A stretch of 64,000 nt of DNA from Bacteroidota bacterium (GTDB lineage Bacteria; Bacteroidota; Bacteroidia; UKL13-3), in NCBI GenBank assembly GCA_013298895.1, contig JAAFJM010000005.1:106229-170228 (forward strand), given 5' to 3'. The position numbers and the translations under genes were made by a program. The notes below the pieces were generated by a model. It was given only the letters and a program-made list of their open reading frames with translations. It made no database searches and was not told where the DNA came from. Of this stretch, positions 2,195 to 17,634 are shown one piece after another (the first letter of the stretch is position 1; each line of letters starts with the position of its first letter).

Positions 2195-4408
2195 TTATTC
2201 TATTACATCCATAAAAATACCCCTTATTCTAAAATCATTCAAATCATCTCCTTTCAAAATAATATCTTCATATTCGTCCATTGTCGATAAAGGTTTCAAG
2301 ATTATTGATTCATGTTTACGTTCATCATTGGATAAATTCCATTTACTATGATACTCCTTAACTGTATAACCAGAACCAAATTCAGAGTCTCTTATATTCG
2401 TTGATTCTACTAAAACAATTTTACCATTTCTTGATCCTCCTTCATCTTGTCTGAATAAACAATACGAACCATTTGGTATTTTTTTATTCATAGATTCTCC
2501 TATTACTTTACAAATGAAATAACCTTTTTTAGCTGAGATATTAAATGGCGGTTCTACCCATATCAACTCTGAATGTTGCTGCAAGTCGCTAAAGTTTCCT
2601 GCTGCTGCGGAGATATCAACTAATGGTATTGAATTGACGTATGGTTTTGCTTCTTCAAACCGTAGGATTCTGAATGGAATTTCTTTTTTGAAAGTCTCAA
2701 TGTGATTTTGTAAATACTCTCTCAACTCTTTGTTATAAGCGTAAATAAAAGTTCCCTTTATTCCACGATACATTATTGTCTTGTAAATATTAACAATAAA
2801 GTTCTTTAGTTCTTCTTCATTTACTCCGATTCGCCCATATTTATCAAAATAGTTACTTGAATCAATTTCGATTTTATTTGTCGCAGAGTTGTAATTTATT
2901 TCTTTTCCGAAAATAACTCCTGTATAGTTTAAATCATATCCTTGAACTGTATGAATACAACCAATTTCATGCAAAGGATTATTAATGTCTTTTGGATTGT
3001 TAATCCAATCTTTATCAGTTTGATTCCATTGAAATTGTAGGCCTTCAATTTCTATATCTATCGCATCTGGAGTTGGATTCTTTTTTTTGGGGTCAGATTG
3101 CCATTCCCATGAATACCCTGCAACTAACCTACACAAGTGAAAGTCTTCTTCTTTTTTTGATAATTCGGTATACAAATCTTTAAATGATTCAAATAATACA
3201 AGATCATATGATTCTTCTCTATATTTAGATTGAATTGTTCTTTTAACATTTAGTAATTCGTCAACAAATTGAATATAGTTATTACCACCTTTTACTCTCA
3301 TTTGAGACTTCAGTTCAAGCTTTAACGTGTTTTTCTCATTCAATAAAGTATTAAAATTTGAAGAGTCAACATCAGAAGGCTTCACAGATTGAGCTGAGTC
3401 ATAAAAGAAAATTTGGTTCTTGCTATTTGCAAGTATCCAATCCAACTCAGTGCCAGTGTCATCTAAATTTAATTTTTGATTATTCTTTTTAAATGCACCT
3501 CTCCAGCCAATATTTTTATATTGCCTAAGTCTGTGAGCTTCGTCAACGATTAATAAATCATATTTCTCTGAACTAAAAGTGTCTGATGGGTTTATTACCA
3601 TAGATGCTTTAAGCCCTGGAATTTTTCTGAATACATTTTCTAATGATTCTCTAAGAGAAGTCATTGCCACTACTAAACCAATTTTTGCATTAGGATATTT
3701 ATTTCTAAATTCAATGATATAATTAATCTCTCGCAATTCATCATCATTGAAATCTTCGATTTGTATATTTCCAACATCTGTACTCAAAAGTTTAATCAAA
3801 TAGGTGGCAAGAATGGTTTTTCCAGTTCCAGCACCTCCGCTAATAAAAATTCTATTTGATTTTTTTGATGTTAATCCTTCCAATATTTCAATAACAGAAT
3901 TATATTGATCTTCATTAAGCGACTTATATGGGGAATATTTAAATAATTCTGAATTTTCTATTTCAGTTAATGATTTTGTTACAATTTTTTTCTCAATAAG
4001 TTGATTCCAAATTTCTTTAAAAAGATTTTTATATAAATCCTGTTGATAATAATTGTGATTTATTAACCCGTAATTACCATTCTGAAGCTTATAAGTACCT
4101 TCAGCTGTTATATATTGAATTAAACTCGACTCAATATCTAATGTTGCGGACTTATTGAATTTATCTGAACCAATAATAGATATTTTATCAAGCTTACACC
4201 TTTCAGGATTTGCTAAATGATTTTTGATACGGCTAGATGCATTTGTCGATTCACCAACATATGCAATTTTTATTGAATCGTTTTGAATAAAATAAACCAA
4301 TGGCCATTGGTTTTTAACCCAAGTATTTTGTTCAATACTACTTAGTGAGAGTTTGTTAAAATCATATTGTTCAGAAACTTCAATTGATAATTCAAAGGAT
4401 AAACTCAT
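2195..4408 (-). CDS. GIY-YIG nuclease / DUF2075-type P-loop ATPase / C-terminal S24 (LexA/UmuD-like) peptidase domain fusion protein
   Basis: N-terminus VYFIQNDSIKIAYVGES...SSRIKNH...DIESSL matches GIY-YIG (GIY, YIG, conserved R, N/H, E). Walker A motif ISGGAGTGKT plus LLIVDEAHRL Walker B/DEAH-like, as in DUF2075/Schlafen-like ATPases. C-terminus has GESM (Ser in the G[DE]SM context) and YTVKEY (Lys in TVK[RE]) about 45 residues apart, with GKIVLV, as in the S24 Ser-Lys dyad fold. Its ATG overlaps the upstream gene's stop by 4 bp (ATGA). Confidence 0.75.
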   Translation of the reverse strand: MSLSFELSIEVSEQYDFNKLSLSSIEQNTWVKNQWPLVYFIQNDSIKIAYVGESTNASSRIKNHLANPERCKLDKISIIGSDKFNKSATLDIESSLIQYITAEGTYKLQNGNYGLINHNYYQQDLYKNLFKEIWNQLIEKKIVTKSLTEIENSELFKYSPYKSLNEDQYNSVIEILEGLTSKKSNRIFISGGAGTGKTILATYLIKLLSTDVGNIQIEDFNDDELREINYIIEFRNKYPNAKIGLVVAMTSLRESLENVFRKIPGLKASMVINPSDTFSSEKYDLLIVDEAHRLRQYKNIGWRGAFKKNNQKLNLDDTGTELDWILANSKNQIFFYDSAQSVKPSDVDSSNFNTLLNEKNTLKLELKSQMRVKGGNNYIQFVDELLNVKRTIQSKYREESYDLVLFESFKDLYTELSKKEEDFHLCRLVAGYSWEWQSDPKKKNPTPDAIDIEIEGLQFQWNQTDKDWINNPKDINNPLHEIGCIHTVQGYDLNYTGVIFGKEINYNSATNKIEIDSSNYFDKYGRIGVNEEELKNFIVNIYKTIMYRGIKGTFIYAYNKELREYLQNHIETFKKEIPFRILRFEEAKPYVNSIPLVDISAAAGNFSDLQQHSELIWVEPPFNISAKKGYFICKVIGESMNKKIPNGSYCLFRQDEGGSRNGKIVLVESTNIRDSEFGSGYTVKEYHSKWNLSNDERKHESIILKPLSTMDEYEDIILKGDDLNDFRIRGIFMDVIE

Positions 4409-5019
4409 AATTCAGTGTATTTTTTAGCAACGCCTTTAGACTTATCTACTGGATATTTTTTATCATTTTCAATGGTTTTATCTATAACAGCATCAAACAA
4501 ATCAATGCCATAATTATTAGCCAAGTACAAGCAATAAGTAACTATATCAGCTAATTCATTTTTTACTTTATCTTCATCTACATCCTTTTCTCTATCCCAA
4601 AGAAACAAGTCAATCAGCTCACCAGCCTCCGATCCTATAGCCATAGATAAATTTTTAGATGTATGAAACTTTTTCCAATCCCTTTCACTTCTAAAGCTAT
4701 CCAAAAACTTCATCATTTCATTTAATGGATTAAAACCTAAAGGCTGTTCATAGACTAAAACAATTTGATTTGGGCCTATTAAATTCTTATGGAAAATAAA
4801 ATCACCTTCTTCGTATGAATTTTCAACATTAAAAACATCAGGTGCCAAAATAATATCAAAGCCTTGTTCTCTTAAAAAACTATTTACCAAAACTATTTGC
4901 TTTTGTATAGATTCGGCTTCGAATGTTCTTTTAAATAACTTCCCTTCTGTCCAGCCATGATGGAGTTCCGCTAATCTATCAGAAAAAGGATAAACTTCAG
5001 ATAATAAAGGTAATTTCAT
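4405..5019 (-). CDS. MazG-like all-alpha NTP pyrophosphohydrolase with an uncharacterised ~100-aa N-terminal domain
   Basis: The C-terminal half FHTSKNLSMAIGSEAGELIDLFLW...NELADIVTYCLYLA carries the ExxE...ExxD metal-binding signature of MazG/YpjD-type NTP-PPases. The gene sits between the neighbouring genes with a 2-nt gap on one side and a 4-nt overlap on the other. Confidence 0.65.
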   Translation of the reverse strand: MKLPLLSEVYPFSDRLAELHHGWTEGKLFKRTFEAESIQKQIVLVNSFLREQGFDIILAPDVFNVENSYEEGDFIFHKNLIGPNQIVLVYEQPLGFNPLNEMMKFLDSFRSERDWKKFHTSKNLSMAIGSEAGELIDLFLWDREKDVDEDKVKNELADIVTYCLYLANNYGIDLFDAVIDKTIENDKKYPVDKSKGVAKKYTEL

Positions 5020-5021
5020 AG

Positions 5022-6998
5022 TTAATTTTGAGGTTTATGCATTGTCAATGCTAATTTATATTCATCATCGTAAGGCAATTGTAATTGTGGAAGCATTTCG
5101 GGTATTGCCAAAGCCCAACTAACATAGTAGTAAGCAAGAACATGATAACCTGAAAAGGTTTTTCCTTTAATCGAACTTATTCTGTAATCGTCTTTATCAG
5201 GCCTATAACCTTGCGTGCCTTGCATAGCAATTTCTAACGCCATTTTCTTAATTTCTTCTTTAGGCATTCCAACGAAAAATTGAAGAGCATCAACCATGAA
5301 CATAACCACTGCCATGTTAGTACCAATGCTCTGCTGTGACTTTTGGAACTTTTCCATTTCCCTTTCTTTGTAAGGGTCTTTGGATTCCAAATCATAAGGA
5401 TCTTTTTCAATGGATGATAAAAGCTCGTCTATATTTGTTCTTTTTGTTCTGTATTCATTTTCATTAACAAGTTCAAAGTTCTTATCAAGTTTTAAGTCTT
5501 CTGCCCAATGCAATACCAATTCATACTCTTCAGCAGGTTCTTTATCGTCCTTGTATTGCAAATACTCTTCATAAAAATCTGTTGCTAATTTCATTTCTGA
5601 CGGAATAGCATTGAAGTCTTTGATAAAGTCAAAACCAAATAATTCTTTGAACTGAATTGCATTTACAATATTGTAGACCTTGCTTTTTGAAATGATGTCT
5701 TTGGGAGAGAGTTCAACAATCTTTTTATCTGTTACAGCCTTCAGGCCTTCTTGTAACATATTGTAGAGAGAGATAAATTGAAAAGGTCTGAGTTCTGCGA
5801 ATTCATTATAAAGGAAATTCTCAATAAATAAGTCAATTGGCGTATTGAATATTTGACGGTTCATGCCTTCAAATAAATTAGAACAATAATCAGCAATTGA
5901 CTTTTCAGAAATTCCCATTTTGTTGAATTTCTTGATTGTCGGTTCAAGTTCTTTTATGAATTCTGTTTTATGATTCTGAGTAGAAATAAATAATTGGTTT
6001 AACTCACCTTTTCTTGCTTCAATAACAAAATCTAAATGCACCAATTCATGCATTATTAAATGTTCAACCGCTGGATAACTTGGTTTGTATTTTACAATGT
6101 GAGTTTCTCTGTCATAGTTTTCTGCAAACTCAAATTTTGCTGCCGTTGGGATTTCTTCATCTTGAATAATGTCAATTTTTCTGTCACCATCAAATTCAAG
6201 TTTGTGTCTGTATTCCCTGAATATTTTTTTGCCAGTATCAGTTGCAATTATTTTTTTAGAAATCTCGAAAGCTTGTCTTACAGAGTTTTGGTATAAAATA
6301 TCCTTACTTTTATTCAGTTTAATTGCTTGAATGGTGCTGTAAAAAGATGACTGCAAGTCCGCTTCCATTTCGGCAATCATTCCTAAAGCAAAATGAGTGT
6401 TTGCATATTGATCATTAATCTTTAAAGCCTCATAAAAATATTTTTTTGCTTCTTCCAATTTACCTTGTTGCATAAGGTTTGCACCAATATTATTTATGGT
6501 GATATTGTCCTTAGGATTTGCAATTTGTGCTTGGTCATAATACTTCATTGCAGTTGGAACATCATCTTTAAATTTAGCAAAGATGTTTCCCATCATAAGT
6601 AAAGCCCATCCATTTTTTGAATCCCAACGCAAAGCGTCAATTAAGCAATTTATTGCTTCATCTTGGTTACCTTCATCGGATAGTACTTGTCCCATAATTC
6701 GGTGGTATTCCGAATTTGTTGGATTTTTTTCAATGAGTTTTTTTAGGATTGGTTTTGCCTCTGAGTATTTTCCTTTTTCGCAAAATGAAACAACTTTTTG
6801 AAAATCTATTTCTTGAGCAAGAATTGAAGATGTATCGATTTCTATTTTTACAAAATCATCATTAATTGATACTCTGGGCTTAATAGAAGCAAAAGTGTAA
6901 TAATTTTCTAGTGTATTGATAATGAGCGATTTACCCCCCCCAATTAATTCTGGGAAGATTTCTAGTAAAAAGTTATCTATTTTATGAATAATTACCAT
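5022..6998 (-). CDS. TPR-repeat protein with a C-terminal HExxH metallopeptidase-like motif
   Basis: Several 34-aa TPR-like repeats (YHRIMGQVL..., ALLMMGNIF..., NNIGANLMQQG..., HFALGMIAE...). The C-terminal region has HELVH. The ORF track starts at TTG (7016). I prefer the ATG at 6996-6998 (MVIIHKID...) because a TAcaTTTG -7 box (complement of 7014-7021) lies just upstream. Confidence 0.6.
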   Translation of the reverse strand: MVIIHKIDNFLLEIFPELIGGGKSLIINTLENYYTFASIKPRVSINDDFVKIEIDTSSILAQEIDFQKVVSFCEKGKYSEAKPILKKLIEKNPTNSEYHRIMGQVLSDEGNQDEAINCLIDALRWDSKNGWALLMMGNIFAKFKDDVPTAMKYYDQAQIANPKDNITINNIGANLMQQGKLEEAKKYFYEALKINDQYANTHFALGMIAEMEADLQSSFYSTIQAIKLNKSKDILYQNSVRQAFEISKKIIATDTGKKIFREYRHKLEFDGDRKIDIIQDEEIPTAAKFEFAENYDRETHIVKYKPSYPAVEHLIMHELVHLDFVIEARKGELNQLFISTQNHKTEFIKELEPTIKKFNKMGISEKSIADYCSNLFEGMNRQIFNTPIDLFIENFLYNEFAELRPFQFISLYNMLQEGLKAVTDKKIVELSPKDIISKSKVYNIVNAIQFKELFGFDFIKDFNAIPSEMKLATDFYEEYLQYKDDKEPAEEYELVLHWAEDLKLDKNFELVNENEYRTKRTNIDELLSSIEKDPYDLESKDPYKEREMEKFQKSQQSIGTNMAVVMFMVDALQFFVGMPKEEIKKMALEIAMQGTQGYRPDKDDYRISSIKGKTFSGYHVLAYYYVSWALAIPEMLPQLQLPYDDEYKLALTMHKPQN

Positions 6999-7013
6999 TA
7001 GTTTTTTATGATT

Positions 7014-7021
7014 CAAATGTA
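7014..7021 (-). promoter_or_regulatory. Bacteroidota sigma-A -7 box (TAnnTTTG) for the three-gene operon
   Basis: Minus-strand TACATTTG, 16-23 nt upstream of the ATG at 6998. Confidence 0.35.
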
Positions 7022-16924: not shown

Positions 16925-16976
16925 TGAGTGCGGAGTTCGAAGTGACAAAAGTGCGAAGTGAAATGCTAAATGAATT

Positions 16977-17011
16977 AGCAATTAGCAATTGGCAATAAGC
17001 AATTGGCAAAA
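16977..17011. repeat. Heptanucleotide simple sequence repeat (5 tandem units of RGCAATW)
   Basis: AGCAATT AGCAATT GGCAATA AGCAATT GGCAAAA, sitting 27 bp upstream of the ATG at 17038. A second imperfect repeat of AGTGCG(A)AGT(T)CGAAGTGA lies at 16927-16960. Confidence 0.6.
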
Positions 17012-17037: not shown

Positions 17038-17634
17038 ATGAAATTTAAGAATTTAGTTCAATTGAAGTTTTGCTTGCTTCTAAGTTTGTTAGTTGTATAC
17101 ATTGCTGCAAATGCCAATGAAATTGACAGCTTGAAAACGGATAAACAAGTTTTGGCATTTATAAAAAAACTATCTCCTAAAGACGAAAGAATAGGTGGAA
17201 CAAGTTTTAATGCTCATAATAGTTATGATTCAAAAACGCAAAAAACGGCTGATTCATTAGGAGTTAAAAATTGGATAAAAATTGACTTTGACCAAAATGG
17301 CGAAACAGATTTGATTGCATTTAATTTGTATGATTTGCAGCAAATAGTCGCTGTTTTTTCAATAAATGGAAAGTACAAAAAAATTAATTCTACTTGGAGT
17401 GTTGGTTTTAAATATCCACTTACTTATCCAATTATTAAAAATATTGACAGTAAAAATTTGATTTTAATTTACCACAATCAAAGAACAAGTAATAGAATAA
17501 AATTAGGAGAAGATTTAAATTATACTCCAATTGAATGCGATACTATTATGTTTGAAGATGGGATGTTTTTAAATTATTATAAAAATCCTCAAAAACATAT
17601 AGTTGAAAGCCTTAGTATAAAAAAGCTATTATAA
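17038..17634 (+). CDS. Hypothetical secreted protein
   Basis: Signal peptide (AANANE). No recognisable domain. Confidence 0.35.
   Translation: MKFKNLVQLKFCLLLSLLVVYIAANANEIDSLKTDKQVLAFIKKLSPKDERIGGTSFNAHNSYDSKTQKTADSLGVKNWIKIDFDQNGETDLIAFNLYDLQQIVAVFSINGKYKKINSTWSVGFKYPLTYPIIKNIDSKNLILIYHNQRTSNRIKLGEDLNYTPIECDTIMFEDGMFLNYYKNPQKHIVESLSIKKLL

Follow-up and report, generated by a model that had tools for sequence, protein, structure and literature searches.

A candidate mobile defence module of Bacteroidota that pairs a MazG-like enzyme with an S24-bearing nuclease-helicase

We analysed a 64,000-nucleotide (nt) stretch of contig JAAFJM010000005.1 from a Bacteroidota bacterium. We will call this whole stretch the window, and all coordinates are window positions unless another locus is named. 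Three minus-strand genes in the window, which we will call A, B, and C, form a compact operon. C contains a GIY-YIG nuclease domain, a DUF2075/SLFN-g3 helicase core, and a C-terminal S24 domain of the LexA/UmuD type; B is a MazG-like nucleoside triphosphate (NTP) pyrophosphatase; and A contains a TPR array and an HExxH motif. We propose that B and C, in some genomes together with A, form a mobile and so far unnamed defence module of the same kind as the nuclease-helicase Nhi, which is probably switched by self-cleavage. We give this proposal a probability of roughly 55%.

Linkage and distribution of the MazG and nuclease-helicase genes

The conserved core of the system is two genes, with B immediately before C. 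We scanned one genome per species and found 163 species with a relative of C, of which we analysed the best 80 for linkage. All 80 relatives are full length and are 63-100% identical to the C protein of the window. By record title, nearly all of them are from Bacteroidota, besides one from Balneola and a 3-kb contig labelled Rhizobium. In 79 of the 80 loci, a MazG gene lies directly upstream and ends at the start codon of C; the exception is cut by the end of its contig. No other neighbouring family was found in more than 7 of the 80 loci.

The pairing extends to more distant relatives. It is kept with a homolog of C that lacks the S24 domain (locus L093), with an S24-bearing homolog that is 37% identical (L094), and with a relative of 32% identity on a megaplasmid of Bacillus thuringiensis (L095). 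In three viral contigs (L100, L101, and L103), the MazG gene is downstream of the C relative or on the opposite strand, and the two genes are still found together. That the linkage survives rearrangement argues that B and C are functionally coupled. On the Paenibacillus plasmid pY5S7-1 (L096, 2522-5581), the gene upstream of a GIY-YIG-DUF2075 relative encodes a DUF3578 protein rather than MazG, which indicates that the MazG partner can be replaced.

The sequence-only reading of this DNA, which preceded our searches, had treated all three genes as one unit. The three-gene linkage does recur outside this genome, with A-B-C operons in the same order in at least 16 species, so that its absence elsewhere, which would have counted against that reading, is not what we observe. 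However, the unit is not obligate: only about 17 of the 80 species loci contain A, as do 4 of 20 from metagenomes, so about 80% of the B-C loci lack it. The upstream genes are also found with another effector. In L192-L194, a helix-turn-helix (HTH) gene, A, and MazG are followed by a PDC-M26A-like protein of 534 amino acids (aa) and a 738-aa DUF2357/PDDEXK_7 protein (5678-12123 in L192), and there is no C. From its domain content, we read this pair of proteins as McrBC-like. The architecture of the module is an optional HTH gene, an optional A, MazG, and then an effector.

Homologs of C that are of equal length and 75-90% identical number in the thousands, and their similarity does not follow taxonomy. 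Proteins that are 89-93% identical to the window's C are found in metagenome-assembled genomes (MAGs) labelled as Spirosomataceae, Chitinophaga, Crocinitomicaceae, and Flavobacteriaceae (MAG labels need caution), and the C proteins of Flavobacterium species are only 71-73% identical to it. This incongruence, together with the varied genomic contexts, indicates that the module is accessory and mobile. The sequence-only reading had likewise described an accessory module inserted among unrelated genes, and we found no shared synteny across the 80 species. When we looked for an empty site by way of the thioredoxin gene next to the operon, we recovered the occupied locus alone. Genes similar to C are rare in phages (4 of 50,697 phage records and 9 of 2.9 million viral contigs); given this rarity, we rejected the idea that C is a phage gene, and we consider the module to be cellular.

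Some relatives of the module lie in defence contexts. One locus (L001) contains ThsB/ThsA (Thoeris), Shedu SduA_C, RelA/SpoT, and a Gp49/HTH pair (HigBA). Another (L094) contains a NUDIX protein, a Type IV restriction enzyme, and a methyltransferase-HNH protein, and a third (L191) contains an EcoRI-type methylase and a GmrSD-like protein. Type IV restriction enzymes adjoin B-C in L020, L022, L025, L074, and L094. Among the 145 nearest neighbour proteins, Fic/SoFic (4-5 cases) and RhuM (3 cases) recur.

In three MAGs labelled as Cytophagaceae or Aquirufa, a gene for a 966-969-aa mREase_IV protein is directly upstream of the MazG-C pair (L020, 6731-9631; L022, 6736-9645; L025, 6746-9646). These arrangements may be composite islands or a larger system.

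A tightly linked pair that moves between genomes might also be a selfish addiction system similar to toxin-antitoxin pairs. C would be a DNA-damaging toxin that is neutralised by MazG or by the S24 domain, loss of the pair would kill the cell, and there would be no dedicated role against phages. Such a system would fit the stop/start overlap of B and C, their horizontal movement, and their presence on megaplasmids of Bacillus; also, mazG of Escherichia coli is co-transcribed with mazEF. But MazG, whose catalytic residues are conserved, is an enzyme and not a labile binder, C has candidates for autoinhibition built in, and a helicase of 737 aa with three domains would be an atypical toxin. Furthermore, many toxin-antitoxin pairs are defence systems, so that this explanation overlaps with the defence module that we propose. 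We consider a purely selfish pair to be very unlikely.

Predicted activities of C and B and the self-cleavage module

We aligned C with S24-bearing relatives (14 sequences, down to 36% identity). In the GIY-YIG domain, Y39, Y50, G52, E53, R60, H64, E93, and N110 are invariant, and the GIY and YIG motifs take the form VYF (residues 38-40) and YVG (50-52). For the C of the window, the match to Pfam's GIY-YIG is weak (aa 37-73, 19.9 bits, under the cutoff of 22.6 bits). Across the clade, Pfam's GIY-YIG, S24, and SLFN-g3 models each matched all 14 members (the best GIY-YIG match is 2.6e-7). Since the residues of the GIY-YIG, Walker, and S24 sites show little or no variation even at 36% identity, C is predicted to be a competent nuclease-helicase. 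A search with phmmer of full-length C against the Protein Data Bank (PDB) gave no useful match.

The S24 domain is missing from most relatives of C, which are about 560-590 aa long. In the window's C, this domain matches PF00717 with 28.9 bits (the cutoff is 23.3), and the best match across the clade is 1.4e-11. The segment IPLVDISAAA/GNF of C (the slash marks the predicted cleavage site) lines up with LPLVGRVAA/GEP of E. coli LexA. The AAA/G site matches A84-G85 of LexA and C24-G25 of UmuD, and it lies about 35 residues before the serine. The GESM motif of C aligns with GMSM/GDSM, and TVKEY aligns with TVKRL/TVKKL, of the E. coli LexA and UmuD proteins. Neither G604 nor S639 varies in the alignment, and at least 90% of the sequences keep K684. 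The tail also matches phrog_4, a family of phage CI-type repressors, at 1e-8. A phmmer search of the PDB with the tail gave no useful match; a profile of the family did reach the C-terminal domain of LexA. Judging from these alignments, the tail of C is a complete self-cleavage module rather than a degenerate remnant.

The same S24 subfamily is found on another kind of nuclease. Adjacent to B-C in L074 (12735-16193) is a 1,152-aa PLD-SNF2-DUF3427 protein with a C-terminal S24 domain that is 45% identical to that of C (E = 2e-46). Without S24, this kind of protein matches mREase_IV of PADLOC from end to end (1.5e-239), so we will refer to it as a Type IV restriction enzyme. We then searched metagenomes with an alignment of the S24 subfamily as the query and classified the 80 best loci: 37 are of the restriction-enzyme type, 37 are of the C type, 4 are cut off by the ends of their contigs, and 2 are something else. 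A MazG partner accompanies 26 of 30 full-length C-type genes versus just 1 of the 37 restriction-enzyme-type genes, which implies that MazG is a partner of the DUF2075 effector while the S24 domain is an independent add-on. Both types of effector also occur without S24. The S24-bearing restriction enzymes are about 1,120-1,170 aa (L074 and metagenome loci in the range L111-L151), and many are marine. The S24 subfamily is also found in open reading frames (ORFs) of 157 aa (L139, 627-1097) and 316 aa (L186, 855-1802) with neither DUF2075 nor PLD/DUF3427; these may be stand-alone or differently fused forms.

B resembles DCTPP1. Its ExxE (EAGE) and ExxD (ELAD) motifs are invariant, with the residues E31, E34, E55, and D58 as numbered on the aligned fragment of B (window 4405-4719). 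The closest solved relatives of the B profile are an archaeal pyrophosphatase (4qgp, 7e-31) and mouse and human DCTPP1 (3e-29). No hits to B were found in PADLOC. The additional N-terminal domain of about 100 aa that the sequence-only reading had noticed is real: about 30 proteins, 47-100% identical, span the full length of B. In Pfam, the domain has no match at E ≤ 5. B proteins of 204 aa were found only within A-B-C operons.

We propose that the S24 domain holds the nuclease-helicase in check and that self-cleavage between Ala603 and Gly604 would release an active enzyme of about 600 aa. The released protein would degrade replicating foreign DNA, and possibly the DNA of the host as well. By analogy with LexA, UmuD, and phage CI, the trigger for cleavage may be the filaments of RecA on single-stranded DNA (RecA*) that form during phage replication or upon DNA damage. 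Gating of C by its S24 domain was already suggested by the sequence-only reading. The conservation of the cleavage site and of the Ser/Lys dyad makes this plausible. B would act on the nucleotide pool. B most plausibly removes deoxycytidine triphosphate (dCTP) or 5-modified dCTP, which would fit its affinity to DCTPP1 and the repeated pairing of the module with modification-dependent nucleases.

An alternative is that the module has an accessory role in the repair or tolerance of DNA damage. Cleavage stimulated by RecA* would turn C into an enzyme that processes forks or lesions, much as UmuD is converted to UmuD', and MazG would clean up damaged or non-canonical deoxynucleotides. The complete LexA/UmuD-type module in C would suit this role, the DCTPP1 family is known for house-cleaning, GIY-YIG is the fold of the nuclease domain of UvrC, and many of the loci are among housekeeping genes. 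Also, S24-based SOS networks operate in Bacteroidota (PMC8565304). On the other hand, the module is rare and patchily distributed, its identity is incongruent with taxonomy, and it has no conserved synteny. The S24 subfamily of C is shared with a Type IV restriction enzyme, the module can lie directly beside restriction or defence genes, and the HTH-A-MazG unit has been swapped onto another candidate pair of defence effectors. Finally, there is no SOS box (CTAA-N5-TTAG) upstream of the operon. We regard a repair role as unlikely, and we favour the defence module.

Gene A, the upstream region, and the layout of the operon

Where it is intact, A is 84-89% identical across families, and H313, H317, E318, and H321 (the pattern H...HExxH) are invariant among its homologs. 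AlphaFold2 modelled the first 250 residues (an N-terminal beta domain and the TPR array) with confidence. Matches to PADLOC are confined to the TPR region, and so are sequence matches to the PDB.

A contains a run of eight Gs near its start, and this tract varies in length. We compared six conspecific assemblies in which the sequences on either side of the tract are identical. The tract is G8 in the window and in L008, L009, and L010, where A is in frame. It is G9 in L011 and L013, where A is out of frame and is called as a 640-aa protein from an internal start, and it is G10 in L012, where A is also out of frame (called as 557 aa). In other species, G9-G11 is found at the same site, with A partly in frame and partly out of frame (loci including L019, L026, L044, L046, L051, and L059). 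The A orthologs of L014, L023, and L028 lack the tract. The tract is a candidate switch for phase variation by slipped-strand mispairing.

Six loci (L019, L026, L036, L044, L084, and L089) have a split or frameshifted A next to an intact B and C. Three of these breaks are between the TPR and the HExxH parts (L036; L084, 7696-9671; L089, 7713-9672); those in L084 and L089 follow the low-complexity runs NKQTNKQT and HTHTHT.

In several relatives (L001/L028, L014, L084, and L191-L194), the operon begins with a 63-105-aa XRE-type HTH gene that lies 2-5 nt upstream of A. The HTH protein matches PADLOC's capH (2e-5) and Control_protein (7.5e-7). We found no HTH ORF upstream of A in the window.

Under the sequence-only reading, A was a sensor or scaffold. 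In its strictest form, this leads to an obligate three-component system in which A senses infection, MazG is an effector that acts on nucleotides, C is a gated nuclease, and all three proteins are required. The operons of constant order, the strong constraint on A across families, and the restriction of the 204-aa form of B to loci with A all point that way. But as A is absent from most B-C loci and is broken in six others, it can hardly be an essential sensor. A also accompanies the McrBC-like pair, and a mutable poly-G tract within A implies that the cell tolerates its OFF state. We think that an obligate trio is highly improbable. From these sequence comparisons, A looks more like an optional regulatory add-on. 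It could be a front-end for the module, perhaps a regulator of the metallopeptidase type, and the HTH protein and A might work together like CapH and CapP. In this genome, A stands without the HTH protein and is probably toggled on and off by the poly-G tract.

Transcriptional signals at the operon are sparse. The sequence-only reading assigned the operon a -7 promoter box of its own. The match (TACATTTG) is present, but this motif is not enriched in the window, where we found 104 occurrences and 121 were expected (at or below chance). So the match would fit a promoter, although it is no proof of one. Scans for sigma-70 promoters and terminators at the operon were uninformative. The repeats that had been noticed upstream are there in three copies, which fill the intergenic region between A and the gene for a PKD-domain adhesin. 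Their core (GTCTTGAACTTTGACAAA) has 3 matches in the window where 0.15 are expected, and there are none elsewhere in the window. They are possibly operators or elements like REP (repetitive extragenic palindromic) sequences, and it is uncertain if they belong to the operon.

In sibling strains, the region between A and the PKD gene contains an ORF of 227-232 aa on the opposite strand (L008, 7038-7736; L010, 355-1053; L011/L013, 281-964). It has the motifs YHVYNRG and HFHLL and no match in Pfam at E ≤ 5; the label "IS200/RAYT-like" was given by eye only.

Near the operon, we found no match to the Bacteroidota SOS box CTAA-N5-TTAG; a second motif, GGA-N5-TCC (PMC8565304), was not scanned. Transcriptional control of the operon by the SOS response is thus unsupported. 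The two exact matches to CTAA-N5-TTAG (16966-16978 and 17080-17092), a number that is at the level of chance, are separated by 114 nt and lie between panB and a gene for a lipoprotein-like protein; no SOS-type gene adjoins them.

The coordinates of the genes and other features are given in Table 1. As the sequence-only reading described, the three minus-strand genes are tightly packed: just 2 nt separate A from B, and the stop codon of B overlaps the start codon of C in a 4-nt ATGA. Its domain assignments for A, B, and C all hold as well. The list of ORFs placed A at 5022-7016, starting from a TTG codon. We ruled out this start: homologs of A are 656-660 aa and begin with MQIIHK or MVIIHK, which matches the ATG at 6998. 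The G+C content of the operon (about 0.28-0.33) is equal to that of its flanks. The flanking genes encode a DUF4920 protein, a thioredoxin-like protein, and a 1,261-aa PKD/CHU_C adhesin of type IX secretion. The window derives from a lineage of Bacteroidia MAGs from Lake Mendota, and the C gene of L013 (JBIIBC010000016.1) is 100% identical to the C of the window over the best matching segment.

Table 1. Features of the operon and of its upstream region, with positions in the window.
Feature	Position	Strand	Description
Gene C	2195..4408	-	737 aa; GIY-YIG + DUF2075/SLFN-g3 superfamily 1 (SF1) helicase + LexA/UmuD-type S24; predicted effector
S24 module of C	2198..2641	-	aa 590-737; Pfam Peptidase_S24 over aa 596-687
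Catalytic Lys684 (TVKEY)	2357-2359	-	aligned to LexA K156 and UmuD K97
Catalytic Ser639 (GESM)	2492-2494	-	aligned to LexA S119 and UmuD S60
Predicted scissile bond Ala603/Gly604	2597-2602	-	AAA/G at residues 601-604
DUF2075/SLFN-g3 helicase core of C	2735..3850	-	aa 187-558; Pfam E = 9e-59
Walker B of C (LIVDEAHR)	3530-3553	-	D289 and E290 invariant in the alignment
Walker A of C (GGAGTGKT)	3815-3838	-	G191-K197, invariant in the alignment
GIY-YIG core of C	4073..4303	-	aa 36-112; from the alignment of 14 relatives, Pfam, and PADLOC PDC-S14 (E = 4e-7)
Gene B	4405..5019	-	204 aa; N-terminal domain + DCTPP1/RS21-C6-type MazG-like NTP pyrophosphatase
MazG-like domain of B	4408-4722	-	aa 100-204; Pfam PF12643, 59.7 bits (cutoff 27)
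N-terminal domain of B	4723-5019	-	aa 1-99; lineage-specific; no family assignment
Gene A	5022..6998	-	658 aa; small beta domain + TPR array + HExxH helical domain; optional accessory gene
HExxH motif of A (HELVH)	6036-6050	-	aa 317-321, in a helical domain of about 400 aa
TPR array of A	6249-6833	-	aa 56-250
Poly-G tract (G8)	6934..6941	-	codons 20-22 of A; sole G8 run in the window
-7 box match TACATTTG	7014..7021	-	fits the Bacteroidota consensus TAnnTTTG; 15 nt upstream of the start of A
Intergenic repeats, core GTCTTGAACTTTGACAAA	7190..7385	.	two direct 64-nt copies and one inverted copy

The defence reading and its comparison with known systems

Several points weigh against a defence function. 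The family is known from sequence alone, and no PADLOC v2.0 system model matches A, B, or C beyond weak and partial matches. Some relatives do lie in the defence islands that the sequence-only reading had proposed to look for, but the majority of the 145 neighbour proteins are ordinary metabolic genes, and the enrichment is qualitative only. The S24 domain fits DNA-damage repair equally well, with UmuD as the precedent, and its cleavage could inactivate C instead of activating it. The dependence of this cleavage on RecA is drawn by analogy, and some S24 proteins cleave without RecA. The substrate specificity of MazG is a prediction. The C-terminal domain of A has no family in Pfam (at E ≤ 5), the PDB, NCBIfam, or PADLOC; AlphaFold2's confidence (predicted local distance difference test, or pLDDT) for the HExxH domain is just 30-55, and it is 39 in the single-sequence model of A. 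Also, the differences in the length of the poly-G tract could be errors in the assembly of homopolymers.

If our proposal is correct, then Bacteroidota, Bacillus plasmids, and some viral contigs share a widespread two-gene defence pair that joins nucleotide-pool enzymology to a Schlafen-type nuclease-helicase. We found no paper on the pairing of MazG with DUF2075 or with Schlafen proteins, or on the fusion of S24 to proteins in defence. The S24/RecA* switch, which is known from repressors and UmuD, would here serve to turn on immune effectors, a Type IV restriction enzyme among them, and it would account for how nucleases of this sort spare their own cell until infection. The poly-G-switched A would add a case of phase variation from a freshwater population of Bacteroidota. 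Carriers in culture include Flavobacterium swingsii DSM 21789, F. nitrogenifigens, F. hydrophilum, Pedobacter suwonensis DSM 18130, P. frigoris, and Ulvibacter antarcticus DSM 23424.

A broader idea, which we offer tentatively and with less than even confidence, is that S24 is a portable post-translational sensor of infection or DNA damage that has been attached to immune nucleases of the Schlafen and the Type IV restriction types. RecA on single-stranded DNA would license the destruction of DNA without any need for transcription, which would make C a bacterial counterpart of SLFN11 at RPA-coated single-stranded DNA. The DCTPP1-type enzyme would edit the pool of dCTP or modified dCTP as a second arm.

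Our comparisons agree with the sequence-only reading that this is no named system. In PADLOC v2.0, C has weak and partial matches to AbiO (E = 2e-9), PDC-S14 (4e-7), and PDC-S41 (1e-5), and no model named Nhi is among the matches of A, B, or C. The best of these matches, to AbiO (PDLC02350), covers aa 276-430 of the helicase core; AbiO lacks the GIY-YIG domain, the S24 domain, and the MazG partner.

B is similar to DCTPP1/RS21-C6 (PF12643) in its profile match and in the invariant ExxE...ExxD motifs that bind metal. Unlike DCTPP1, the gene for B overlaps that of a nuclease-helicase, and the protein carries the extra N-terminal domain in this genome.

The HTH and HExxH proteins have a parallel in CapH/CapP and ImmR/ImmA, in which an XRE HTH protein and an HExxH metallopeptidase are encoded upstream of immune operons (10.1101/2022.04.27.489752; PMC13228613). 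The relatives with an XRE HTH gene directly before A, and the invariant HExxH of A, are similar to CapH/CapP. However, A has no match to capP (PADLOC, E ≤ 0.01) or to Peptidase_M78 and is by sequence no member of the CapP/ImmA/IrrE (M78) family. It also differs in its 658 aa and its TPR array, and the window contains no HTH gene.

C shares with LexA, UmuD, and CI the (A/C)-G site, the serine of GxSM, and the lysine of TVK, and their order and spacing agree. In C, the S24 domain forms the C-terminal end of an enzyme and is not joined to a DNA-binding domain. It forms a subfamily of its own, with about 20% identity to LexA (by eye) versus 45% to the S24 domain of the Type IV restriction enzyme.

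DUF2075 NTPases, sometimes fused to GIY-YIG, were previously reported next to DUF3427 enzymes (Lutz et al. 2019, PMC6765204). Similarly, the Type IV restriction enzyme (PLD-SNF2-DUF3427, mREase_IV) is a frequent neighbour of B-C, and one version of it shares the S24 subfamily. It is absent from the window, and its nuclease and helicase are from other families than those of C.

The closest precedent for C as a whole is Nhi of Staphylococcus epidermidis (SERP2475), a validated anti-phage nuclease-helicase with PD-(D/E)xK and DUF2075 domains (Bari et al. 2022, 10.1101/776245). The Nhi-like proteins, which are also anti-phage, combine a PD-(D/E)xK nuclease with DUF2075 (Millman et al. 2022, 10.1101/2022.05.11.491447). 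Like these proteins, C is a single chain with an N-terminal nuclease and a DUF2075 (PF09848) SF1 helicase with Walker A and B motifs. But the nuclease of C is of the GIY-YIG type instead of PD-(D/E)xK, Nhi acts alone whereas nearly every C has a MazG neighbour, and Nhi lacks the S24 domain. The near-invariant MazG partner and the predicted, portable S24 switch are features that have not been described for this kind of nuclease-helicase.

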